Assembly (NCBI GenBank): GCA_947455805.1
Contig: CANGSN010000003.1
Span: forward strand, 1-32,380
Direction of reading: 5' to 3'
DNA: 32,380 nt
Origin: Planctomycetota bacterium
Lineage (GTDB): Bacteria > Planctomycetota > UBA1135 > UBA2386
Positions 406-11,714 of this stretch are shown in pieces. Positions within the stretch are counted from its first letter, which is position 1. Every line of letters begins with the position of its first letter. Under the pieces are notes generated by a model. It was not told the DNA's origin. It searched no databases and worked only from the letters and a program-made list of their open reading frames with translations. Made by a program: the position numbers and the translations under genes.

Positions 406-2154
406 ATGCCCGCTGCTCCGGATCGCCGCCTGCTCGCCCTGTTGCTCGCCGCGGCGGCGTTCTGGACGTGGCTCGCGTTCGGCGTGCACACCGTCGAGAT
501 CATCGGCGGCGAACTCGACCAGTACGTCGTGCGCGCGCGCGCGATCCTCGCCGGCAGCGACAACAAGGATCCCTACCACCCAGCCGGCTATCCGCTGTGG
601 ATCGCGGCGCTCGGCTGGTGCGGCGTCGAACCGTTCGCCGCCGCGCGCGCGCTCGGCGTCGGCTTCGGCCTCGTGCTGCTGTGGGCGAGCCACGGCCTGG
701 CGCGACTCTGGCTGCCGCCGTTCGCGTCCCTGCTGGTGGCCGCGATCGTCGCGTTGTCCGAGTTCGTGGTGACCACCACCGTGCAGGCGTGCAGCGACGT
801 GCCGGCGGCGGCGATGGGCACCGTCGCCCTGCTGCACTGGTGCCGCGCCGCGCGCTTGGGCGTCACCACGCGCCAGCTCGTGCTCGGCGGCCTTTGCCTC
901 GGCATCGCCACGTCGTTCCGTTCGCCGGCCCTGTGGCTCGGCGCGGGCTTCCTGCCGCTGCTGTGGAACGTCGCCCCGGCACACCCGCTGCGCGAGCGGC
1001 TGCGCCGCGTCGGCTGGACCGCGCCGGCGCTGGTCGTCGGCCAGCTGCCGCACTTCGTCTGGTTCGCGCACGTGTTCGGCTCGCCGCTGCACAACCTCGC
1101 GTGGCACAGCCTCGTGCTGAAGTTCCATTGCCACTACGACGAACCACAGTGGCTGGCCGCAGCTCCGCGCTACGACGAGATCCTGCGCGCCGAGTGGACC
1201 TCGTGGCTGTGGCCGGCGGCGCGCGATGCGCTGCAATACCTCGGGTCCGGCCTCGCCAACGGCCTCGGCGTCGGCGTCGCGACGGCACCGGCGATCGCCC
1301 TGTCGCTCGCGGTGCTCGCCGGCTTCCTGCACGCGCTCTGGCGCGGCGATCGCGCGCGGGTCGTGCTGGCCCTGGCCACGCTCTGCTACGCCTCGCTGCT
1401 GGCCGCGATGTTCCGGCCGATGGACCGCTTCACGATCCCGCAGCTGCTGCCGGCCGTGCTCGCGCTGGCGGTGCCGTTCGCGCGCCGCGACGAAGCGCGG
1501 CGAGCCACCGCCGTGCTGGTGTTGCTGCTCGCCGTCGTCGCCTTCCGCGCCACCGACGTGCTGCGCGGTTTCCCGCTGCTGCACGCGCACGCCGAACGCG
1601 CCGCCGTCGCCGCACTCGGCGCCGAACGCGGCGAGCCGGCGCGCGCGCTGGTCTGGCCGTTCTTCGCGTTCGTCGGCGACGATCCGTGGACCGAACTGCG
1701 GCGACACCTGCACGCGTACGACCAGGAGTTCGCCGTGCTGTCGCGCACGACGTCGCGCCCCGCCATCGAGGCGCTGCTGGCGCAACCGCTGCCGCCAGAC
1801 TTCGCCATCGTGCGCAACGACGAACTGCTGGTGCTCGACGCGACGCACACGCCGACGCCATGGCTCGCGGCCGCGAGCGCCACGCCGCGCGATGGCGCGC
1901 TGCACCTGCAGCTCGAACGCACGACGACGGCGCCGGGCGACGACCCGATCTTGATGGCGGCGTTCCTGGTCGGCGTGCCACGCGACGGCGCCTTCGCTTG
2001 GCAGCACGTGCCGCTGGTCCCGACCGGCGAACGCAGCTACGCGTTCGACCTGCCCGCCGGTGCCCTGCGCGGCCTGCGCTGTCGCTTGGTGCCGGCCGTG
2101 ATCCACACCTCCGGCATGATCCGCCGCGGCACGCCGTTCGAGGTCACGCCGTGA
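406..2154 (+). CDS. Polytopic membrane glycosyltransferase, GT-C fold (ArnT/PMT, GT39/GT83-like), 582 aa
   Basis: Many hydrophobic helices; acidic first loop GGELDQY..RA...DPYHPAGYP; SDVP motif; R(F)xxP motif in a late loop; soluble C-terminal domain. Confidence 0.75.
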   Translation: MPAAPDRRLLALLLAAAAFWTWLAFGVHTVEIIGGELDQYVVRARAILAGSDNKDPYHPAGYPLWIAALGWCGVEPFAAARALGVGFGLVLLWASHGLARLWLPPFASLLVAAIVALSEFVVTTTVQACSDVPAAAMGTVALLHWCRAARLGVTTRQLVLGGLCLGIATSFRSPALWLGAGFLPLLWNVAPAHPLRERLRRVGWTAPALVVGQLPHFVWFAHVFGSPLHNLAWHSLVLKFHCHYDEPQWLAAAPRYDEILRAEWTSWLWPAARDALQYLGSGLANGLGVGVATAPAIALSLAVLAGFLHALWRGDRARVVLALATLCYASLLAAMFRPMDRFTIPQLLPAVLALAVPFARRDEARRATAVLVLLLAVVAFRATDVLRGFPLLHAHAERAAVAALGAERGEPARALVWPFFAFVGDDPWTELRRHLHAYDQEFAVLSRTTSRPAIEALLAQPLPPDFAIVRNDELLVLDATHTPTPWLAAASATPRDGALHLQLERTTTAPGDDPILMAAFLVGVPRDGAFAWQHVPLVPTGERSYAFDLPAGALRGLRCRLVPAVIHTSGMIRRGTPFEVTP

Positions 2155-3971
2155 CCGACACCACGACCAGCGCGGCGACGCACGGCGCGCGCGACCTGCG
2201 CACCGCGCTGCTGCTCGGCGCCGCCACAGCACTGGCGTTCGCGCTGCTCGGCCCGTGGCTGCATCCCGCCGCTGGCGTCGGCGGCGAGATGGACGACTAC
2301 GAAGGGCGCGCCATGCGCATGGCGAACGGTGAAGCCGCCGGCGATCCATACCACCCGTACGGTCCGTCCCTGCTGATGCTCGCCGCGATGCAGTTCGGCC
2401 TCGGGCCCCTGGCGGCCGGCCGGCTGGTCAGCGCCATCGCCGCCGGCGTGCTGGTCGCCGCCAGCCATCGCCTGCTGCGTGCGTTCGTCGGTCCGCGGAC
2501 CGCCGGGCTCGGCGCGCTCGCCGTCGCCACCACCGGCATCACGTTCGCCAACGCCATGCTCGCGAGCTCCGACATGCCGGCGGCGGCCTTCGTGGCGCTC
2601 GCCCTGCTCGGCTGGCAGCGCGCTGCGGCCTCGGCGCGCACGGCACTCGCCGCCAGGGCGACGTTCGCGGCAAGCGTGGCGTTCGGCCTGGCGCTGGCGT
2701 GCCGTTCGTCGTCGATGTTCGTCGCCGCCGGCGCCTTGCCGCTGTTCGTGTTCGTGCCCTGGCGAACGGCGCTCGCACGCATCGCCGTCACCGGCCTCGG
2801 CACGGCGCTCGGGCTCGCACCGCACTGGCTGGCGACGCGCATCTGGGGCGCTGGCCCGCCGCATCCCGGCAACGCCGCCAACCTGGTGCTGAAGTACCGC
2901 CTCGGCTTCGACTACGACCGCATCGGCCAGATGGATGCGGGGGCGATCCAGCAGGACCTGCGCGAGCACTGGTTCGAGTACCTGCAGCGCGGCCTCGGCG
3001 ACGTGTGGACGCTGCTGACGAACGACCTCGCGCGCGCGCTCACCACGAGCGCCCCCGGCCTCGTCACCGCAGCGCTCGCCCTCGTGCTCACGATCGCGCT
3101 GCTGCTCGGGCTCGTGACGCGCGACCGCCGCCAGCACACGCTGGCGCTCGCCGGTCTCGCCTACGCTGCGCTCCTCGGCCTGACGTTCACGCCGATCGAT
3201 CGCATGCTGCTGCCGCTGCTGCCAGCGACGGTGCCGATGCTGCTCGCCGCCGGCGCCCGCGTCGGTCCGCGCGTTGCCACAGCACTCGGCGCGCTGGTGC
3301 TGGCGACCACGCTGGCGTCGCTGCCGCGCGCCGCCGAGGACTTCGCCGGCATGCAGGTCGACGAGCACTTCGCGGCGATGCGCGAACGCGTGCAGCGCGA
3401 CAGCCGGCCGCTGGTGTTCCTGTGCGACTTCGGCCGCACCGGCGACGTGCCCGGTGCGTTGCTGCTCGCGACGTTCGCAGGTTGGCGCGGCCTCGCCCCC
3501 GACGCGCAAGTCGCGTGGTTGCGCGACCAGGTCGAACGCCACCACGCCGACTACGTCGTCTACAGCCGCGGGCGTTCGCACGAACTGCTGGCCACACTGC
3601 GCAGCGCGACCTTGCCGCCGGGCTGGACGATCGAACGCGACGACGCGGTGTTCGTGCTGCGCGTGCCGCCGCCGCCGGTGCTCGGCGACTGGCAGACGCG
3701 CGTCGTCCGCGACGGCAACGAGCACGTGCTGAGCTTCCAGGTGCCGCCGCTGCCGAACGGTGGTGTCGTCGCCTCGGCGGGCTTCGTCGTGCGCAGCCCG
3801 GACGGGTCGACGCAGCTGCTGCCGGCGGCGAAGCGGGAGGACGGTTCCTACGAGCTGCGCGTGCCGGTGGCGCCGACGCTGGTCGGTGCGCACGGCCTGA
3901 CGCCGGTCGTCATCGCCGAGCCGGGCGGCGTGATCCGCGGCACGCCGCTCGAACACACGTTCACGAACTGA
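2151..3971 (+). CDS. Second GT-C fold membrane glycosyltransferase, paralogue of 406..2154, 606 aa
   Basis: GTG at 2151 overlaps the upstream TGA (GTGA coupling). Shares GGEMDDY..RA...DPYHPYG, SDMP, LVLKY, DRMLLP and the terminal IRGTP motif with the upstream gene. Confidence 0.75.
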   Translation: MTDTTTSAATHGARDLRTALLLGAATALAFALLGPWLHPAAGVGGEMDDYEGRAMRMANGEAAGDPYHPYGPSLLMLAAMQFGLGPLAAGRLVSAIAAGVLVAASHRLLRAFVGPRTAGLGALAVATTGITFANAMLASSDMPAAAFVALALLGWQRAAASARTALAARATFAASVAFGLALACRSSSMFVAAGALPLFVFVPWRTALARIAVTGLGTALGLAPHWLATRIWGAGPPHPGNAANLVLKYRLGFDYDRIGQMDAGAIQQDLREHWFEYLQRGLGDVWTLLTNDLARALTTSAPGLVTAALALVLTIALLLGLVTRDRRQHTLALAGLAYAALLGLTFTPIDRMLLPLLPATVPMLLAAGARVGPRVATALGALVLATTLASLPRAAEDFAGMQVDEHFAAMRERVQRDSRPLVFLCDFGRTGDVPGALLLATFAGWRGLAPDAQVAWLRDQVERHHADYVVYSRGRSHELLATLRSATLPPGWTIERDDAVFVLRVPPPPVLGDWQTRVVRDGNEHVLSFQVPPLPNGGVVASAGFVVRSPDGSTQLLPAAKREDGSYELRVPVAPTLVGAHGLTPVVIAEPGGVIRGTPLEHTFTN

Positions 3972-4010
3972 CCGGTGGCGGTGTCCCACGCGCGCGACCG
4001 AGGCGACCGC

Positions 4011-5564
4011 TCAGCGCGGAGCCGTGGGCAGTGTCTGGCCATTCAGCACCCGCAGACGCGGCAGCGAGCGCAGGCGCTTGAAGGTCTCCAAGTCGCTGAG
4101 GAACCCATGCTGCAGATCGAGCTCCTCGAGCCCGGTCATGGCGACGAGCGTCTCGAGGCTGGCCGCGGTGAGGCGCATCTGGCGCAGATCGAGGGCGCGC
4201 AGCTTCGGCATCGTCGCCAAGAAGGCGATACCGCGATCGGTGATGCGATCACAGGCCGCGAGCGACAACCGCTGCAGGCCCGGCAGGTGCTCGGCGATCG
4301 CCTGCAACAGGGCATCCGGATAGTCGCCGCACAGTTCCAGCGACTCGAGTCCGCGGGGCAGGCCGGCGACGAAGTCGACGCCGTCCAACTGCCCGCCGAA
4401 GGCGCCGAGCACGCGCAGGCTGCCACCACCCACCGCGTTCGCGCCACCGAGCAGAGCCAGCTGCGAGCTGCGCCAGTGGCCGCTGCCGATGTCGAGCGAA
4501 CGCAGACGCGATGCCGTGCCGAGGGCCAGCAGGGTCGCCTCGCCCGGCCCCATGCCGATCCGATCGGCGTGCCGCTGGGCGCGGGCGCGCACGACGCGGC
4601 CGATGTCGTCGTCGGCCTCGGTGCCGTTGCGCCAGTTCATGCCGTCGATCGCCGACAGGTCGAGTTCCTCGAGCTCCGGCAGTTCGGCGAGACGCGCCAG
4701 CACGCTGTCGTGAAGCTGCTGGCAGCCGCGCAGCGACAGCCGACGAAGCGTGCGACAACCGAGCAAAGCGACGACACCGTCGTCGACGAACCCGTGGTTG
4801 AACGACAGGTCGAGCCTGCGCAGCCACCGCGCGCGTGGCAGCAGGGCCAGCAGCTCGTCGTCGGTGTCCATGCAGCGCATCGTCAGCGACGTCAGCAGCG
4901 GCAGCGCTTCGAGTGCTGCGGCGAACACCGGGCGCTCCGCCGGGCCGAGGCGGCCGAGGCGCACGGTCCCCGACAGCTCGAGGCGACGCAGCTTCGGGAA
5001 GCCGAGCAGCACGGGCCAGCTGGCGGCAGTGACATGACGAGGATCGCTCGGGGCCACGGTCTTCAAGCCGAGCCCGAACGACTCGTTCCACGGTTCGCGC
5101 ACACGCAGGACCTGCAGTTCACGCAGCGGCGCCAGCGCCGCGATCACTTCGTCGTCGCCGCCGACGACCTCCACCGCGCGGGTGTCGTTCGGCAAGGCCT
5201 TGGCGGAGGCCACGTCGTGTACGAACACCACGGCCGGCTCCACGGCGGGGTCCTGTTCTGGGTCGACCGCGTGCGTCGGCTCGAGCTCGACACAGGTCGG
5301 CGTTCGCGCCCACACCGCGACGCCGACCACGACCGACGCGGCGAGCAGCACCGTCGCGGCCGTCAGCCAGTTCGCCGTCCGCGTCCTCGGCGCAGGCTGC
5401 GCCGCGAGCCGCGCCTGCACGCCAGCGAGCAGGTCGGGCGGCTCCGCGCCGCCGAGCCGTTCGGCCAGGGCCCAGTCCATCACCGGGTCGTCCGGTGCGC
5501 GCACCGGCTCTCGATCGCCAGCAGGACCAGAAGGCTGACCGGGCCTGTCGTCGTCGTTCGTCAT
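4011..5564 (-). CDS. Single-pass membrane protein with leucine-rich-repeat C-terminal domain; putative anti-sigma factor, 517 aa
   Basis: ATG at 5564 overlaps the sigma-factor TGA (ATGA). Short N-terminal segment DPVMDWALAERLGG..PPDL, TM helix WLTAATVLLAASVVVGVAVW, then about 12-13 LRRs (LRRLELSGT, LRRLDLSFN, LRRLSLRGC, LEELDLSAI, LQRLSLAACDRITDRGI, LRALDLRQM). Confidence 0.8.
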   Translation of the reverse strand: MTNDDDRPGQPSGPAGDREPVRAPDDPVMDWALAERLGGAEPPDLLAGVQARLAAQPAPRTRTANWLTAATVLLAASVVVGVAVWARTPTCVELEPTHAVDPEQDPAVEPAVVFVHDVASAKALPNDTRAVEVVGGDDEVIAALAPLRELQVLRVREPWNESFGLGLKTVAPSDPRHVTAASWPVLLGFPKLRRLELSGTVRLGRLGPAERPVFAAALEALPLLTSLTMRCMDTDDELLALLPRARWLRRLDLSFNHGFVDDGVVALLGCRTLRRLSLRGCQQLHDSVLARLAELPELEELDLSAIDGMNWRNGTEADDDIGRVVRARAQRHADRIGMGPGEATLLALGTASRLRSLDIGSGHWRSSQLALLGGANAVGGGSLRVLGAFGGQLDGVDFVAGLPRGLESLELCGDYPDALLQAIAEHLPGLQRLSLAACDRITDRGIAFLATMPKLRALDLRQMRLTAASLETLVAMTGLEELDLQHGFLSDLETFKRLRSLPRLRVLNGQTLPTAPR

Positions 5565-6106
5565 CGTTCTCGCCTCCGTTCGATGCAGCTCCGCAGCACA
5601 GCACGCAGGCGCTGCAGCAGCGTGCGCACGCCGTGTTCGCCGAGGCCGAGCTCGGCGCCGAGTTCGGCACGTCCGAGGCCATCGCGGTAGGTCCGCTCCA
5701 ACGCGATCCGCGAACGCTCCGGCAGTTCGCCAAGGCAGCGGTCGAGCGCCGCCAGCCAGCCGGCACCGTCGAGGTCGCCGCGCCTCAGCAGATCGCGCTG
5801 CCAGGCCTGTTCCGCAGCTTCCGCGTGCAGGGCAGCACGACGTCGCTCGCCGCGCTGCTCGCGCAGCCACAGGTGCTTCGCCGTCTGCCGCAGGAACGCC
5901 GCCGCCTCCGCACCGCTCCACGCGAGCACACCGCGCTGCAGCGCCACCACCAGGGCATCCTGCGCGATCGCCTCGGCTTGCTGGCCCCGGCAACCGAGCA
6001 CGTGCAGGAAGCGCCACACGGCGGCCTGATGGCCACGGACGAAGGCCGCGACGTGCTCGTCGCGATCGGTGGCTGGTTGCGTCGGCGGTTCGCTCAAGCG
6101 GGTCAC
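5561..6106 (-). CDS. ECF-type sigma-70 factor
   Basis: Region 2 (FVRGHQAAVWRFL..LG....AEAIAQD, AFLRQTAKHLWL) and region 4 (LDRCLGELPERSR..L...Y.DGL...ELG.ELG.....VRTLLQRLR). Start uncertain: in-frame GTG 6130, GTG 6106 (preceded by GGGGGA) or TTG 6097. Confidence 0.85.
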   Translation of the reverse strand: MTRLSEPPTQPATDRDEHVAAFVRGHQAAVWRFLHVLGCRGQQAEAIAQDALVVALQRGVLAWSGAEAAAFLRQTAKHLWLREQRGERRRAALHAEAAEQAWQRDLLRRGDLDGAGWLAALDRCLGELPERSRIALERTYRDGLGRAELGAELGLGEHGVRTLLQRLRAVLRSCIERRRER

Positions 6107-6162
6107 GCGCCACAGTCCCCCGTCGAGCACCAGGAGTACGCAGCGAACCCGGAAAACCCGGG

Positions 6163-7194
6163 TCAGGACGTCGGCGCCGCTGGCTGGCGATCGCGCAGGC
6201 GCAGCTGCCCGCACGCCGCCTCGGCATCAGGCCCGCTCGAGTCGCGGATCGTCGCCAGGATGCCGCGGCTCTTCACTGCGCGCACCATGGCGATGATGCG
6301 CTCGCGGCTCGGCGCCGCGAACGGCAGCCCGTCGACCGGGTTGTAGACGATGAAGTTCACGTAGCCGCGCACGCCCTGCAGCAGCGTGCACAGTTCGTCG
6401 ACGTCCTGGTCGGTGTCGTTGATGCCCGCCAGCATCGTCCACTCGATCTGCACCGGCGTGCCGACCTCGCGCGCATAGGCGTCGGCGGCCGCGGCGATCT
6501 CCGGCAGCGGGTCCTTGTGCGCGCGCGGCAGCAGTTCGCGGCGCTTCTGCTCGTTGGCGCTGTGCAGCGACCACGCGAGGCACGGCTTGACCGCGAACTG
6601 GCGCATGCGTTCGAGCGGCTTCACACCGCCGACGGTCGAGAACGTCTGCTTCTTCGCCGAGATCAGCACCTCGTCGCGGATGCGCGCCACCGCGGCCATG
6701 ACGTTGTCGAGGTTGTGCGACGGCTCGCCCATGCCCATGAACACGATGCGGTCGATGCGCATCACGCGCCGCGCGTGCACGATCTGCTCGACGATCTCGT
6801 CGGTCGACAGGTGGCGCTCGACGCCGAACAGGCCCGACGCGCAGAAGCGGCAGCCGACCGCGCAGCCGACCTGCGTCGACACGCAGCAGGCGCCGACCGG
6901 CATCGCCACCGTCTCGACCTTCTTGCCGTCGCGCAGCTCGAGCAGCAGCTTGACGGTGCCGTCCTTGGCGCGCGTCTCCGCGGCGACGCGCGTCACCAGG
7001 CCGGCGTCGAGCCACTGCTGCAGCACGACCTTCTCGTCCGGTGCGAGCCGCATGCCGTGCTTGTCGAAGTCGACCAGCGTCGGCGTGCGACCGGCGGCCA
7101 CGAGGCGGCGCGCCAGCAGCGCCTTGGCCTCGGGCAGGGCCTTCTGCAGGCCGGAGAGGCCGGAGCCGATCAGGGGTGCGGTCGCGTCCGTCAT
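6163..7194 (-). CDS. rlmN: RlmN/Cfr-family radical SAM RNA methyltransferase, 343 aa
   Basis: CVSTQVGCAVGCRFC (CxxxCxxC plus the preceding catalytic Cys), FMGMGEP, SLH, GINDT, VNFI.YNP and C-terminal AACGQL. The N-terminus is atypical, so it may be a paralogue rather than the housekeeping enzyme. Confidence 0.88.
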   Translation of the reverse strand: MTDATAPLIGSGLSGLQKALPEAKALLARRLVAAGRTPTLVDFDKHGMRLAPDEKVVLQQWLDAGLVTRVAAETRAKDGTVKLLLELRDGKKVETVAMPVGACCVSTQVGCAVGCRFCASGLFGVERHLSTDEIVEQIVHARRVMRIDRIVFMGMGEPSHNLDNVMAAVARIRDEVLISAKKQTFSTVGGVKPLERMRQFAVKPCLAWSLHSANEQKRRELLPRAHKDPLPEIAAAADAYAREVGTPVQIEWTMLAGINDTDQDVDELCTLLQGVRGYVNFIVYNPVDGLPFAAPSRERIIAMVRAVKSRGILATIRDSSGPDAEAACGQLRLRDRQPAAPTS

Positions 7195-7372: not shown

Positions 7373-7906
7373 GTGAACGCGACCCCGCCGAAGCCCCCGC
7401 CCGACGCACCGCTCGACCCCGACAGCGTGCAGGCGGCGCTCAAGCAGCGGCGGCCGTTCCGTTCGCGCCGGCAGGAGACGTTCCTGTGCCTGCTGCTGAC
7501 CGCGGAAGCGACGCGCTGGCCGCTGCTCGACCTGCTCGCCGGCCACGACGAGCTGACGCCGCAGCAATACAACGTGCTGCGCATCCTGCGCGGGGCCGGC
7601 GCCGACGGGTTGCCGACGCTCGAGATCGGCACGCGCATGATCGAACGCACGCCCGGCGTCACGCGGCTGATCGACCGCATGGAGAAGAAGGCGCTGGTGA
7701 CGCGCCAACGCGACCGCGGCGACCGCCGGCAGGTGATCTGCCGCATCACCGAACGCGGCCTCGCCCTGCTGAAGAAGCTCGACAAGCCGATCGACGGGCT
7801 CGAGGACGCAGCGATGGCGGCGCTGAGCGACGCCGAGGTCGAAGCCCTGCTGCCGCTGCTGAACAAGGTGCGGTTGCAGCTGACGCGAGGTCGCGCCCGT
7901 GGCTGA
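7373..7906 (+). CDS. MarR-family transcriptional regulator
   Basis: LTPQQYNVLRILRGA, TRLIDRMEKKALVTR, DRRQVICRITERG winged-helix signature. Start placed at GTG 7373 from promoter geometry; in-frame ATGs at 7334 and 7343 lie within the promoter/operator. Confidence 0.9.
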   Translation: MNATPPKPPPDAPLDPDSVQAALKQRRPFRSRRQETFLCLLLTAEATRWPLLDLLAGHDELTPQQYNVLRILRGAGADGLPTLEIGTRMIERTPGVTRLIDRMEKKALVTRQRDRGDRRQVICRITERGLALLKKLDKPIDGLEDAAMAALSDAEVEALLPLLNKVRLQLTRGRARG

Positions 7907-8816
7907 ACGCACCGACGCCGGCCTCGATCGACGCGCCTTCGTGCGCACTTCGCTCGGCGCCCTCGCGGCGGCGAGCTGTTCGCCGACACCGCCGATCACC
8001 GCTCCGACGCCCGCTCCCGAATCCGCGATGCCCGACGCAATGACGGCGACCATGCCGGTCGTGTTCGTGTCCCACGGCGCTCCGACGATGGCGCTCGATC
8101 GCGAGGCCGGCGCCGACTTCGCCCGCATGGCACAGGCACTGCCGAAGCCGCGCGCGGTGCTCGTCGTGTCCGCGCACTGGCTCGACGCCCCGGCGACGAT
8201 CGGCACGCGCAGTCGCCGCGAACTGCTGTACGACTTCTCCGGCTTCCCGGCGGAGCTCTACCGCGTGCGCTACGAAGCGCCCGCCGCCGCCGACGTCGCC
8301 GACGAACTGCAGCGCGCGGTGCCGTCGCTGCAGCGCGCCGACGAACGGCCGTGGGACCACGGCGTCTGGGTGCCGCTGGTGCACATGTTCCCCCGCGCCT
8401 CTGTGCCGGTGCTGCAGGTGTCGGTGCCGTACCGCTGGTCGCCGCGGCAACTGTTCGAGCTCGGGCGTTCGCTGGCACCGCTGCGGCAGCAAGGCGTGCT
8501 TGTGCTCGGCAGCGGCGGCATGGTGCACAACCTCGGCCGCCTCGACTGGAAGGGCGGCTCGGTGCCACCGGCGTGGGCCGCGAACTTCGAGGGCTGGGTG
8601 CGCGAACGGCTGCGCACCGGCGACCTGGACGGCCTGCTCGCCTACCGCGAGAAGGCGCCCGACCTGCAGCTCGCGCATCCGACCGACGACCACTTCCTGC
8701 CGCTGCTGGTCGCCGCCGGTGCTGCGGCGGGCGCGGGTGCTTCGGCACCGGTGACGTTCCCGATCGAAGGCTTCGAGTTCGGCTCGCTGAGCCGGCTAGC
8801 GGTCCGCTTCGGTTGA
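7899..8816 (+). CDS. ygiD: Class III (LigB/DODA-type) extradiol ring-cleavage dioxygenase with Tat-lipoprotein-like N-terminus
   Basis: VFVSHGAP, VVSAHW, YDFSGFP..LY, DHGVWVPL..MFP, GSGGMVHNL, AHPTDDHFLPL. N-terminal DRRAFV...LAAASC. GTG start overlaps the marR end and follows GAGG. Confidence 0.88.
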   Translation: MAERTDAGLDRRAFVRTSLGALAAASCSPTPPITAPTPAPESAMPDAMTATMPVVFVSHGAPTMALDREAGADFARMAQALPKPRAVLVVSAHWLDAPATIGTRSRRELLYDFSGFPAELYRVRYEAPAAADVADELQRAVPSLQRADERPWDHGVWVPLVHMFPRASVPVLQVSVPYRWSPRQLFELGRSLAPLRQQGVLVLGSGGMVHNLGRLDWKGGSVPPAWAANFEGWVRERLRTGDLDGLLAYREKAPDLQLAHPTDDHFLPLLVAAGAAAGAGASAPVTFPIEGFEFGSLSRLAVRFG

Positions 8817-8830
8817 CGCCGGCGCACGGC
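8795..8830 (+). repeat. Direct repeat, left copy (3' end of the dioxygenase gene plus downstream bases)
   Basis: GCTAGCGGTCCGCTTCGGTTGACGCCGGCGCACGGC; 33/36 identical to 10642-10677, with a perfect 20-bp core at 8799-8818. Confidence 0.85.
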
Positions 8831-8896
8831 AGCACCTTTCGCCCAGCACGCTGGTCGCGACTGGTCGGTCGCTCGCAGCGTCGTTAGCCTTCGGCG

Positions 8897-10039
8897 ATGC
8901 AGATTCGCCGCCTCCGACTCGAGAACTGGAAGAACTTCCGGTCGGTCGACGTGGCCTTGTCGTCGCGCGTCTTCCTGGTCGGCCCGAACGCCGCGGGAAA
9001 GTCGAATCTGCTCGACGCGGTGCGGTTCCTCGGCGACCTGGCGCGTCCCGGCGCCGGCGGTCTGCAGGCCGCAGTCGCCAACGAGCGGCGCCAAGGCATC
9101 AGCCAGATCCGTTCGCTGCACGCGCGAGCACGCAGCGCCATCGTCGTCGAGGTCGAGATCGGCGACGCCGAGACCACCAACTGGACCTATCGCCTCGAGA
9201 TCGCCGGGGGCAAGCAAGGCGCCGTGGTCGCTCGTGAGCGGGTGGAGCACGACGGCACCACGATGCTCGATCGTCCGAACGCGAACGATCGCGACGACGC
9301 TGCCCTGCTGGGCCAGACGCACCTCGAGCAGTTGAGCGCCAACGGCAGGTTCCGGCCGCTGGCCGAGTTCCTGGCCCGCATCAGCTACCTGCACTTGGTG
9401 CCGCAGCTGCTGCGCGAACCGCAGCGCTTCGATCTGATCGGCAGCGATCCGCTCGGGTCCGATTTCCTGCGCCGCGTGGCCAACACGCCGACCAAGACCC
9501 GCGAATCGCGGCTGCGCGCCATCGAGAAGGCGATGCGTGTCGCAGTCCCGAGCCTGGCCCAGCTCGAGCAGATCCACGACAAGGCGGGCGTTCCCCATCT
9601 GCGTGGACGCTTCGAGCACTGGCGCCCGAACGCCGGCTGGCAGGACGAACGGCAGTTCTCGGACGGCACGCTGCGGCTGATCGCACTGCTGTGGATCCTG
9701 ATGGAGGACCAGGCACCGCTGCTGCTGGAGGAACCGGAACTGTCGCTGAACGGCGCCATCGTGCGCGAGATCCCGCGCATGCTCCACGCGGCGACGCGCA
9801 AGCGACCGCGGCAGATCCTCGTCAGCACCCACAGCGGCGACCTGCTCGCCGATCGCGGCATCGCCCTCGAGGAGATCCTGATGGTGACGCCAGTGCGCCA
9901 AGGCTCGAAGGTCGAGGTCGCCGCCAACCGCAAGGACGTGCGGGCCCTGCTCGAGGCCGGAGTCTCGCCTGCCGAAGCCGTGCTGCCGCACACGGAACCG
10001 GGCGCCATGAAGCAGCAGCCGCTGCCGTTCACGGCCTGA
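8897..10039 (+). CDS. ABC/SMC-superfamily ATPase (AAA_21/AAA_15-like), 380 aa
   Basis: N-terminal IRRLRLENWKNF, Walker A GPNAAGKS, signature-like FSDGT, Walker B LLLEEPE, H-switch STHS; no transmembrane partner gene. Confidence 0.88.
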   Translation: MQIRRLRLENWKNFRSVDVALSSRVFLVGPNAAGKSNLLDAVRFLGDLARPGAGGLQAAVANERRQGISQIRSLHARARSAIVVEVEIGDAETTNWTYRLEIAGGKQGAVVARERVEHDGTTMLDRPNANDRDDAALLGQTHLEQLSANGRFRPLAEFLARISYLHLVPQLLREPQRFDLIGSDPLGSDFLRRVANTPTKTRESRLRAIEKAMRVAVPSLAQLEQIHDKAGVPHLRGRFEHWRPNAGWQDERQFSDGTLRLIALLWILMEDQAPLLLEEPELSLNGAIVREIPRMLHAATRKRPRQILVSTHSGDLLADRGIALEEILMVTPVRQGSKVEVAANRKDVRALLEAGVSPAEAVLPHTEPGAMKQQPLPFTA

Positions 10040-10040
10040 G

Positions 10041-10616
10041 ATGGCGATCTGGACCCTGGCTGTCGAAGGCCCGTCGGACGAGGCCGTGGTCGCCGCAGTG
10101 CTGCGCGCGAACGGACACGACGTGGGAGTGGTGCACGGCAAGCGCGGCAAGCACCACCTCGACGGCAACCTGCGCGGTTATGCGCTCGCCGCGATGCACG
10201 CCCCGTGGCTCATCGTGCGCGACCTCGACCAGGACGCGGCCTGCGCGGCCGAGCTGCTGGCGGCGAAGCAACCCGGGGGACACCCAGGCTGCGTGCGCAT
10301 CGCCGTTCGCGCCATCGAAGCCTGGCTGCTCGCCGACCCCGCGAGCGCCCAATGGCTCGGTGTCGCCGCTTCCTTGCTGCCGCGGGATGTCGAGAGTCTG
10401 GAGGATCCGAAGGATGCCCTGGTCAACCTCGCCCGCCGCTCCCGTTCGGCGACGATCAAGGCGGACATCGTGCCTACCCTCAGCCGCTCGATCGGGCCGG
10501 GCTACGTGGACCAAGTGCGCACGTTCTGTGCTTCGCGTTGGCGGCCCGACGTCGCCGCTCGGCGGAGCGAGAGCCTGTCGCGCCTGATCCGCCACGTCCG
10601 GAGCCGGCAGTCGTGA
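10041..10616 (+). CDS. TOPRIM-like protein (DUF4276-like), partner of the ATPase, 191 aa
   Basis: VEGPSD glutamate motif, RDLD DxD motif, IEAWLLAD, DPK and terminal SESL; starts 1 nt after the ATPase stop. Confidence 0.75.
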   Translation: MAIWTLAVEGPSDEAVVAAVLRANGHDVGVVHGKRGKHHLDGNLRGYALAAMHAPWLIVRDLDQDAACAAELLAAKQPGGHPGCVRIAVRAIEAWLLADPASAQWLGVAASLLPRDVESLEDPKDALVNLARRSRSATIKADIVPTLSRSIGPGYVDQVRTFCASRWRPDVAARRSESLSRLIRHVRSRQS

Positions 10617-10641
10617 CTGGCTAGGGCCGGCGCGACGGCTC

Positions 10642-10677
10642 GCTCGCGGTCCGCTTCGGTTGACGGGGGCGCACGGC
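10642..10677 (+). repeat. Direct repeat, right copy
   Basis: GCTCGCGGTCCGCTTCGGTTGACGGGGGCGCACGGC; perfect 20-bp core at 10646-10665; still reads LAVRFG-stop like the dioxygenase C-terminus. Confidence 0.85.
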
Positions 10678-10692
10678 CGATAGCACCGCGGC

Positions 10693-11217
10693 ATGCGCAT
10701 CCACACCGCCCTGCTCTCGTCCTCGCTGCTGGCCATGCTCACGTCGTGCGCCGGCACTCCCGCCAACGACGACGTGAACATGCCGTTCGGCGCCGCCCCG
10801 ATGGGCGAGGTCGCGACGGCGCAACCGGCGAGCCCGTGCCTCGTGATGTCGCCGCAGACGATGCCGCTGCACTGGCACGACCGCGACGGTTCGGAGTGGG
10901 ACGGCGAACTCGAGATCGTCTGCGAGACCGACACCGCGCACGAGCAGATGGCCTGCGCCTGCATGATCGCGCGCTGGCCGCACGCGATCGAGCAGTGCCA
11001 GAACCTCGCCGAGCAGGCGATGATGGAGAGCGCCGCCGACGTCCAGCACATGACCGAGCACCTGCAGAAGACGCTCGACGAGGCGCTGTTCCCGTGCGAG
11101 ACAATGGGCAACGACCAGAAGCCGGTCGGCCGCGTGCGCGGTCTCAACTGGAAGGTGCTGCGCAAGCGCCGCAGCGGTCACACGTTCGACTACCAGCCCT
11201 TGCTGCGCCGCAACTGA
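10693..11217 (+). CDS. Hypothetical lipoprotein, 174 aa
   Basis: Signal peptide with lipobox LTSC; strong high-GC codon bias; Met/Cys/His-rich. Its 3' end overlaps the convergent yfiT by 28 bp. Confidence 0.75.
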   Translation: MRIHTALLSSSLLAMLTSCAGTPANDDVNMPFGAAPMGEVATAQPASPCLVMSPQTMPLHWHDRDGSEWDGELEIVCETDTAHEQMACACMIARWPHAIEQCQNLAEQAMMESAADVQHMTEHLQKTLDEALFPCETMGNDQKPVGRVRGLNWKVLRKRRSGHTFDYQPLLRRN

Positions 11218-11714
11218 GCGATGTGCGCCACGTGGTGGCTGCCGTGCCACGCGTAGAGCGCCACCAGGTCGTCGAGCGTCATCGCACCGCGTTCGCTGTG
11301 CACGCACGTCTTCGCGAACGCAGCAACCGGCAGCGTGCGCAGGCAGTGCACCCAGCGCTCGTGGATCGCCTGCACCAGCAGCAGCGACGTGCCGATCGGG
11401 CCGTTGGCGTCGGCGAGCCTGGCCCACTCGTTCTCGTCGTAGGCCTTGATCGGCGGCGGCGTCTTCTCGGTGATCGTCAGCTTGTGCCGCACGTACGCGT
11501 TGACGTGGCTGTCGGCGATGTGGTGCACGACCTGACGCAGCGTCCAGCCGCCGTCGCGGTAGGGCGTGTCGAGCTGCGCCTGGTCGAGGCCGCGCACGAC
11601 GTCGTGCAGCGCGTGCGGGATGCCGGCGATCGTGCTGATCGCCTGCGCGCGCGCGGCCGGCGTCAGCGTGCCCGGCAGTTCGATCTTGCCGATCGGGTAG
11701 CGCGGGTCGCTCAC
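11190..11714 (-). CDS. yfiT: YfiT/DinB-family metal-dependent thiol S-transferase (bacillithiol transferase-like), 174 aa
   Basis: DPRYPIG, LDTPYRDGGWTLRQVVHHIADSH, IKAYDENEWA, YAWHGSHHVAHI. GTG at 11714 overlaps the upstream TGA. Confidence 0.9.
   Translation of the reverse strand: MSDPRYPIGKIELPGTLTPAARAQAISTIAGIPHALHDVVRGLDQAQLDTPYRDGGWTLRQVVHHIADSHVNAYVRHKLTITEKTPPPIKAYDENEWARLADANGPIGTSLLLVQAIHERWVHCLRTLPVAAFAKTCVHSERGAMTLDDLVALYAWHGSHHVAHIAQLRRSKGW

Follow-up and report, generated by a model that had tools for sequence, protein, structure and literature searches.

INTRODUCTION

How small defence operons move without mobility genes is an open question. One footprint that bears on it, known since 2000 from restriction–modification (R-M) genes (Nobusato et al. 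2000, Gene 259:99, as given in the reference list of PMC2853133), is insertion with long target duplication, the mechanism of which was never explained. Furuta, Abe & Kobayashi (2010, NAR, PMC2853133) set this class apart from site-specific recombination. The available text of their paper reports long target duplications of 45–47 bp and of several hundred bp with all types of R-M systems, among them H. influenzae cases in which a 46 bp repeat overlaps the 3′ end of a neighbour gene; it suggests that double-strand breakage by the cargo may be involved, and the cargo is a nuclease in every class of such footprint that this text describes. Here we analyse a stretch of 32,380 nt from a freshwater planctomycete metagenome-assembled genome (Planctomycetota bacterium, assembly GCA_947455805.1, contig CANGSN010000003.1, positions 1 to 32,380, forward strand), hereafter the window, in which a 1.79-kb cassette of the HEC-01 type lies between two direct copies of the 3′ end of a dioxygenase gene. 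We consider it probable that this cassette is an insertion with long target duplication and that it arose independently of a recombinase.

HEC-01 has been described as an ABC ATPase with a TOPRIM partner that carries an OLD-type metal site, and it was originally found embedded in Hachiman (Hma) systems, according to the accessible part of Payne et al. (bioRxiv 10.1101/2024.01.29.577857). In the parts available of two further papers, DUF4276 is among the listed partners of AAA15/21 ATPases (PMC11464382) and is described as a Toprim member (PMC12065111). Among papers from 2012 on that use the name of the long-target-duplication class, none concerned ABC-ATPase/TOPRIM systems, as judged by titles and the beginnings of abstracts.

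RESULTS

A direct repeat brackets two genes

On the + strand of the window a MarR-family gene, a LigB-type extradiol dioxygenase gene (7899-8816), an ATPase gene, a gene for a small TOPRIM protein and a lipoprotein gene (10693-11217) follow one another. A repeat search of the window aligned 8795-8830 with 10642-10677 at 33/36 identical positions and a spacing of 1847 nt. The perfect 20-nt core of this repeat runs across the dioxygenase stop codon in the left copy (8799-8818) and returns at 10646-10665 in the right copy, which encodes GSLAVRFG-stop. Shared motifs lie further out, namely CGGCTCGCT at 8780 and 10636 and AGCACC at 8831 and 10682, and GGCTAG is present at 8794 and 10619. The initial annotation had reported all of these features, together with the observation that the ATPase gene (8897-10039) and the TOPRIM gene (10041-10616) alone lie between the copies, and each of them agreed with the sequence.

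The similarity of the two flanks is far above background. Local alignment of flank against flank scored 57, compared with 21.4 +/- 2.9 in 30 shuffles (z 12.4). With up to three mismatches the 20-mer core had two matches in the window, where 0.02 were expected, and two or more copies appeared in 0/100 shuffles. With up to two mismatches it had two matches in the whole assembly (G000; 479 contigs), which is 56% complete, so that this count is a lower bound; both matches are the two copies, and the 20-mer thus does not behave as a dispersed genomic repeat, a concern that the initial annotation had raised. No match to the core was found in viral_contigs, and folding of the repeat showed nothing unusual (z -0.45 and +0.87).

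The duplicated target spans CGGCTCGC (12 codons from the dioxygenase end, stop included) to AGCAC(C), 5 nt upstream of the lipoprotein ATG. Its left copy (8780-8836) comprises the last 12 dioxygenase codons with the stop and 20 nt behind the stop, and its right copy (10628-10687) comprises a dioxygenase pseudo 3′ end, a stop and the native 5′ region of the lipoprotein gene. The start of the right copy at 10628 was set by homology with L059, a metagenome contig that carries the same structure, and the duplicated segment is thereby about 60 nt long. Between the copies lie 1791 nt of unique DNA (8837-10627): a leader of 60 nt (8837-8896, +), in which L059 matches the 3′ 44 nt exactly and has diverged in the 5′ part, the two genes, and a tail of 11 nt (10617-10627, +) from the HEC-01B stop to the right copy. 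The reading of the initial annotation as a minimal two-gene islet inserted at the dioxygenase 3′ end therefore holds.

Two gaps separate the copies. The left copy is without 4 nt (CGAT) that are present in the right copy and in the empty site described below; since L059 has the same gap in its left copy, this change is older than the split between window and L059, or it dates from the insertion. In the right copy, 10628-10645 is rearranged in the window strain and full length in L059, where all 11 codons are retained (GSPSRLAVRFG-stop). Hence the 9-bp indel between the copies, to which the initial annotation had drawn attention, is present but is a later change in the window lineage and not a property of an att site.

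The codon states of the lineage, GTC CGC TTC GGT TGA, stand in both copies and differ in 5/5 congeners of other species; the copies also agree in four states behind the stop at which the congener with the empty site differs. The two copies of L059 are identical at 48/53 positions. Because both copies carry the lineage's own states, we regard the repeat as a duplication of the local target and not as a sequence brought by an element. The left copy is the working end of the dioxygenase, since the same 11 residues or near variants of them close the protein in 6/6 relatives aligned.

The empty site and the soundness of the assembly

Forty-one genomes (G000 and 40 relatives) were searched with 7899-11217. 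In one congener (contig G010:C462) the dioxygenase stop is followed by 30 nt and then by the lipoprotein ATG, with a single repeat copy between them, as the initial annotation had predicted for a relative with an empty site. The dioxygenase of this congener ends ...GSLSQLAVRFG-stop; its 3′ end has 92% identity and the lipoprotein gene 96-97%, and the empty site aligns with both copies of the window. Most relatives are without the cassette, and cassette homologues occur in 2/12 other genomes of the genus, both at other loci. Conversely, metagenome contig L059 has 94.8% identity over 7.9 kb and carries the cassette with both repeats at the same place. The idea that other defence cargo might occupy the same site was dropped: behind the dioxygenase, five more distant relatives have ordinary genes, for alcohol dehydrogenase (ADH), LysR, TetR, DinB, biotin carboxylase and ferredoxin.

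The junctions are no artefact of assembly, because both of them are bridged in contigs from three other studies. A contig of run X6 (record 25) covers 7900-11300 with 8 differences, a contig of run X13 (record 11) covers 8202-11300, and two contigs of run X11 (records 1 and 8) lie over the left and right junctions. A skip of 1847 nt, as expected of an excised form, was not seen in contigs of four runs, which drop rare variants, and no joint in the contigs connected the two repeat copies. The other joints in the run contigs, with sides of 21-39 nt, are probably those of other organisms. An X6 contig joins 9245 to 10636, where the right-hand shared motif begins, by a 23-nt side with 4 mismatches in the other part, and this is probably the dioxygenase end of another organism.

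Comparison of the window with L059 gives 94.6% identity for HEC-01A and 92.0% for HEC-01B, against 92.8-97.1% for the flanks. Since the cassette is as diverged as its flanks, the insertion predates the split of the two. It is an old, stably inherited insertion common to lineages about 5% apart. Unlike those of the described insertions with long target duplication, the repeats have decayed, to 33/36 with indels in the window and to 45/57 in the second case below, which shows that they have persisted for long and do not stem from a recent event.

The cargo is a candidate HEC-01 operon

The first gene of the cassette (HEC-01A; 8897-10039, +) encodes an ABC-type ATPase that matches PADLOC model PDLC04180 over residues 1-373 (E 8.2e-141) and Pfam AAA_21 (E 1.7e-29), with further matches to AAA_15 and SMC_N. 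Its translation shows a Walker A motif (GPNAAGKS), a Walker B/D-loop (LLLEEPE) and an H-loop (STHS). A profile of 24 HEC-01A homologues matches the ABC heads of GajA, OLD, PtuA, AriA and a retron ATPase in the PDB.

The second gene (HEC-01B; 10041-10616, +), which starts 1 nt after the HEC-01A stop, encodes a predicted DUF4276-like TOPRIM nuclease that matches PADLOC model PDLC04194 (E 1.3e-47). The Pfam match to DUF4276 is weak (E 0.0024, sub-threshold), no Pfam match to DUF4435, the AriB type, was obtained, and no PDB entry matched at the sequence level. In an alignment of 22 homologues E9, G10, D13, D61-x-D63, E93 and D99 are conserved, with E9 and D61-x-D63 at 90% or more. The AlphaFold2 (AF2) model has a mean pLDDT of 93.2, and the top five PDB matches in Foldseek (E 6e-4 to 3e-3, TM ~0.48) all fall in the C-terminal Toprim region of OLD proteins, from Burkholderia and Xanthomonas, with 6NK8/6NJW as the best folds (E 6e-4, TM 0.48).

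From its sequence, the cassette is a candidate anti-phage operon of the HEC-01 type, an ABC ATPase with a predicted DUF4276/TOPRIM nuclease of the OLD/PARIS kind. With the PADLOC definition of HEC-01 it shares strong matches to both models, two adjacent co-oriented genes and a TOPRIM partner with the OLD-type metal site; it differs in standing alone among housekeeping genes, whereas the published system lies within Hachiman. PARIS and OLD, as described in the available text of PMC11464382, likewise combine an ABC ATPase of the AAA_15/21 type with a small TOPRIM nuclease. Further likenesses are the conserved Glu and DxD catalytic motif, the OLD Toprim domain as best fold match and AriA among the profile matches. 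However, the nuclease here is DUF4276-like whereas AriB is DUF4435, and HEC-01A aligns to the solved ATPases in their ABC head regions only. On the model of PARIS, Gabija and OLD, the ATPase may sense an invader and license the TOPRIM nuclease. The HEC-01A/HEC-01B pair is kept at most of the loci compared.

A second insertion with flanking repeats

For the family as a whole, 400 nt upstream of HEC-01A were aligned with 400 nt downstream of HEC-01B at complete loci. In three sets 22/23, 17/32 and 14/19 loci were testable, the rest being incomplete, and these make up 53 rows, some of which are the same contig from two collections. Three of the 53 rows were positive: the window (z 12.4), L059 (z 29.9), which represents the same event, and locus L023 on contig G118:C6 (z 16). 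No flanking repeat was found at the other 50 HEC-01 locus rows tested. One further locus, L006 (z 4.4), was dismissed as a gappy match inside conserved flanking genes.

Genome G118 belongs to another family of the same order. Its repeat is 57 nt long, 45/57 identical, and encloses 1933 nt that hold the two genes alone. In the left copy a glyoxalase-family gene ends (...GGVLSELVEEPRAH-stop), and after a further 7 nt comes the ATG of the gene behind it. The right copy repeats this end in decayed form (GGVFSEPVEGQSAR-stop), as a pseudo 3′ end before the true start of a lipoprotein-type amidohydrolase gene. Empty sites are present in four congeners (G119, G120, G121 and G123), where the stop, 7-8 nt and the ATG follow one another. 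The surrounding 16 kb are a methylmalonyl-CoA pathway cluster, and no recombinase was found in the 12 frames of these 16 kb. The targets of the window and of G118 are unrelated, the score of their alignment being reached by 69/200 shuffles, and the two cassettes are far apart in the HEC-01A tree.

At L023 (703-852) the downstream gene's duplicated ATG shares the reading frame of the ATPase, which could thereby gain an N-terminal extension of 36 codons, and no ATG, GTG or TTG occurs near the usual ATPase start. This cassette may borrow the translation start of its target gene.

The HEC-01A tree places the window cassette in one group with the cassettes of congeners G005 and G007 (support 100/99), joined next by that of one family member; all of these lie at different loci. 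Two divergent genes border the spacer that holds the G007 cassette, and in six congeners both flanks are found on one contig, 139-350 nt apart. Its insert is little more than the two open reading frames (ORFs), and none of the three junctions read showed a duplication. The right flank of the G005 cassette is not syntenic in congeners, and its empty site is undefined. Alignment of 130 nt upstream and 110 nt downstream of five cassettes revealed no common non-coding ends or inverted repeats. HEC-01-like DNA or protein is found in 13/339 genomes of the order and in 20/401 sampled from the phylum, G000 being included in both counts, and its distribution is patchy.

Two observations stand beside these comparisons. 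At the site of the G007 cassette, G000 has a different insert of about 2.2 kb (L102 on G000:C143, about 1480-3690) that encodes a protein with two CxxCH haem-binding motifs; this intergenic site may be an insertion-prone spacer shared by G007 and G000. A Microcystis record (L043, 7141-7731) has a HEC-01B homologue with an in-frame stop and an ATPase match in two pieces, and may represent a decaying copy.

Surroundings of the cassette

No integrase, transposase or other recombinase family was matched in Pfam by 63 frames of the window. These were taken from 87 stop-to-stop frames of at least 200 aa, of which the other 24 overlap four scanned genes or listed frames. In 29 window frames no PADLOC match to other defence families was obtained.

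The dioxygenase gene (7899-8816, +) is intact, matches Pfam LigB (E 2.3e-29) and ends GSLSRLAVRFG-stop. The gene downstream of the cassette (10693-11217, +), which adjoins the dioxygenase directly in the empty-site genome, encodes a small lipoprotein with a signal peptide ending LTSC and matched no Pfam family. Other neighbours are housekeeping genes for a radical-SAM enzyme, MarR, DinB and biotin carboxylase. The window has a G+C content of 70%. Composition gave no foreign signal in the cassette, whose G+C (0.68-0.71) and G+C at third codon positions (GC3, 0.86-0.88) are similar to those of its neighbours.

A consensus scan of 8600-10900 for promoters and terminators called 0 sites. Within 10660-10692 a TTGACG contains the dioxygenase stop, and some 15 nt further on, shortly before the lipoprotein ATG, stands ATAGCAC; the pair resembles -35 and -10 elements, and the consensus scan made no call there. 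The 4 nt missing from the left copy would delete the second, -10-like element of this pair. Further upstream, about 2.2 kb of the window (approximately 3981-6186) are missing from the 95%-identical contig L059. They hold a leucine-rich-repeat frame (4014-6272, -) and a sigma-70 region 4 frame (5564-6226, -), and no long direct repeat is visible at their borders.

DISCUSSION

Data from the window, its relatives and G118 showed an insertion of a HEC-01 cassette, a duplication of local sequence around it, no recombinase nearby and recurrence of the same arrangement at an unrelated target. We favour, as the probable explanation, an insertion of 1.79 kb with long target duplication whose origin was independent of a recombinase. 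According to this explanation, the cassette would have landed in the 30-nt junction between the LigB dioxygenase gene and the lipoprotein gene, after the target had suffered a staggered break or replication had switched template there. Host repair would have captured the foreign DNA and filled in the overhang, and about 60 nt, the last 12 dioxygenase codons with the stop and most of the spacer, would have been duplicated in the event. The duplication leaves the dioxygenase with its original end at the left border of the insert and the lipoprotein gene with its native upstream sequence at the right border. Survival of such an insertion would be favoured where a tight gene junction (30 nt here, 7-8 nt at the G118 target) must stay intact on both sides, and we infer that the cassette was retained because both gene ends stay intact.

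Furuta et al. define their class by a duplication longer than 30 bp whose copies align to one copy in an empty site, an insert below 20 kb without mobility genes, a repeat found nowhere else in the genome, and a cargo with homologues of R and M genes. The locus in the window has a duplication of about 60 nt, both copies of which align to the single copy in G010:C462. Its insert of 1791 nt lies among 63 scanned frames without a mobility gene, and its repeat has 2/2 matches at the two copies themselves in an assembly that is 56% complete. Like the described members of the class it is a small defence block with a repeat that overlaps the 3′ end of a neighbour gene. The difference lies in the cargo, which has no R and M gene homologues and consists of HEC-01A and HEC-01B, an ABC ATPase and a predicted TOPRIM nuclease, and in the host, a planctomycete metagenome-assembled genome.

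Several points weigh against this explanation. Its mechanism is our reading of the footprint alone. Duplication is not a regular property of HEC-01 insertion, because 3/53 rows show it and these represent two independent events. The left copies of both the window and L059 are without 4 nt of the target, so that the junction is not a clean copy. The two duplications are near-equal in length, 57 and about 60 nt, which is not what random repair predicts and may indicate that the stagger is a defined one. Rare excised forms would be missed in contigs. Four matches to the tyrosine-recombinase (Phage_integrase) domain are present on other contigs of G000. The window, L059 and G010 are about equally distant, and quartet sites with G007 as outgroup are split 20 (window, L059), 27 (window, G010) and 16 (L059, G010), which leaves gain and loss unpolarised; under this split G010 may have been without the cassette from the start, may have lost it when the repeats recombined, or may have acquired an allele that lacks it. 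Finally, HEC-01 gave no protection in the sole published test, made in E. coli, as far as the accessible part of the report goes (bioRxiv 10.1101/2024.01.29.577857).

The initial annotation had proposed that the repeats are attL and attR of an element mobilised in trans. In this case a recombinase, tyrosine or serine, whose gene lies elsewhere would insert a non-autonomous islet into the dioxygenase 3′ end and excise it again. Islets that have flanking att sites and no integrase are known as CIMEs, and the likeness is real: a small insert without its own recombinase is flanked by direct repeats at a gene 3′ end, the gene is regenerated, and the core of 20 nt is perfect. Moreover, since G000 is 56% complete and has four tyrosine-recombinase matches elsewhere, some room is left for a trans-acting enzyme, although Phage_integrase-domain matches occur in most bacteria. 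Nevertheless, we consider site-specific integration unlikely, and the att assignment was given up. The window encodes no recombinase in the frames scanned, and a third copy of the core was found neither in the genome, as far as it is complete, nor in viral_contigs. The inner arms of the repeat carry states of the host lineage. We had considered an attP model built on the 9-bp and 4-nt gaps of these arms, and rejected it because the 9-bp gap, the element-like indel, is late and private, as L059 shows. The non-coding ends of the insert, 60 nt and 11 nt, give no room for arm sites. The second event hit an unrelated target, the repeat has no unusual fold, and the cassette has been stable through about 5% divergence. 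Compared with CIMEs, the locus has no partner element and no core common to independent insertions, and its repeat is the host's own sequence.

A further argument of the initial annotation was the shared hexamer GGCTAG, with its CTAG tetramer. The hexamer does stand at both ends, but L059 reads GGCTCG and GGCCAG at the two sites, and the contigs of X6, X13 and X17 have C at 8798. Because these sequences differ, the shared GGCTAG is a coincidence private to the window strain. Excision by recombination between the copies, which was also proposed, is possible.

Somewhat less probable again is a homologous recombination of the Campbell type, in which a circle with the cassette and one junction copy, released from a sibling genome when its own repeats recombined, would have entered by a single crossover in the homology of about 60 nt. 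Such a route fits copies that are the lineage's own sequence, and it fits the presence/absence polymorphism among three roughly equidistant lineages, for which the quartet split is consistent with recombination here. It would explain the spread of the cassette in a population but not the first origin of the duplication: a duplicated allele must already exist, and the question is merely shifted. In addition, 60 nt are short for a RecA-dependent crossover, the cassette is as diverged as its flanks and so bears no sign of recent transfer, and no skipped or circular form was seen in the contigs.

The cassette might also have inserted by its own nuclease. HEC-01 would then be a minimal selfish mobile unit: its TOPRIM/ATPase pair would open the target by cuts about 60 nt apart on the two strands, and the sealing of the insert would be left to host repair. 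This extends a proposal of Kobayashi, given in the available text of PMC2853133, that double-strand breakage by the cargo drives insertion, and the nuclease cargo that this text reports for every described class of footprint agrees with it. The near-equal duplications of two independent events and the inserted units of nearly exactly two ORFs at three loci would follow as well. Against it, no repeat flanks the cassette at 50/53 locus rows or at the G007 insertion, neither protein has a known or predicted joining activity, and the duplications amount to two events only. We therefore hold this mechanism to be improbable.

Chance similarity or misassembly can safely be set aside: a G+C content of 70% raises background similarity, but the flank alignment and the two core copies stand far outside the shuffles, the empty site aligns with both copies, independent contigs bridge the junctions and L059 has the same structure.

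Insertion with long target duplication, as we favour it here, would mean that defence cassettes can move without an integrase; the mode of insertion, though seldom noticed and little studied, is known, and HEC-01 as its cargo is new. To the footprint first seen with R-M genes, this case adds a clean example with a different nuclease-bearing cargo, for which an empty site, confirmation at the population level and a dated, decayed repeat are available. It also adds a second independent example within the same protein family and a negative census of 50 further locus rows. The case shows that repeats of this kind should not, by default, be annotated as att sites. The window and G118 offer two concrete loci at which the mechanism can be tested. 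If insertion by the cassette's own nuclease were true, it would supply the mechanism of long target duplication and explain the tie of this footprint to nuclease-bearing defence genes.

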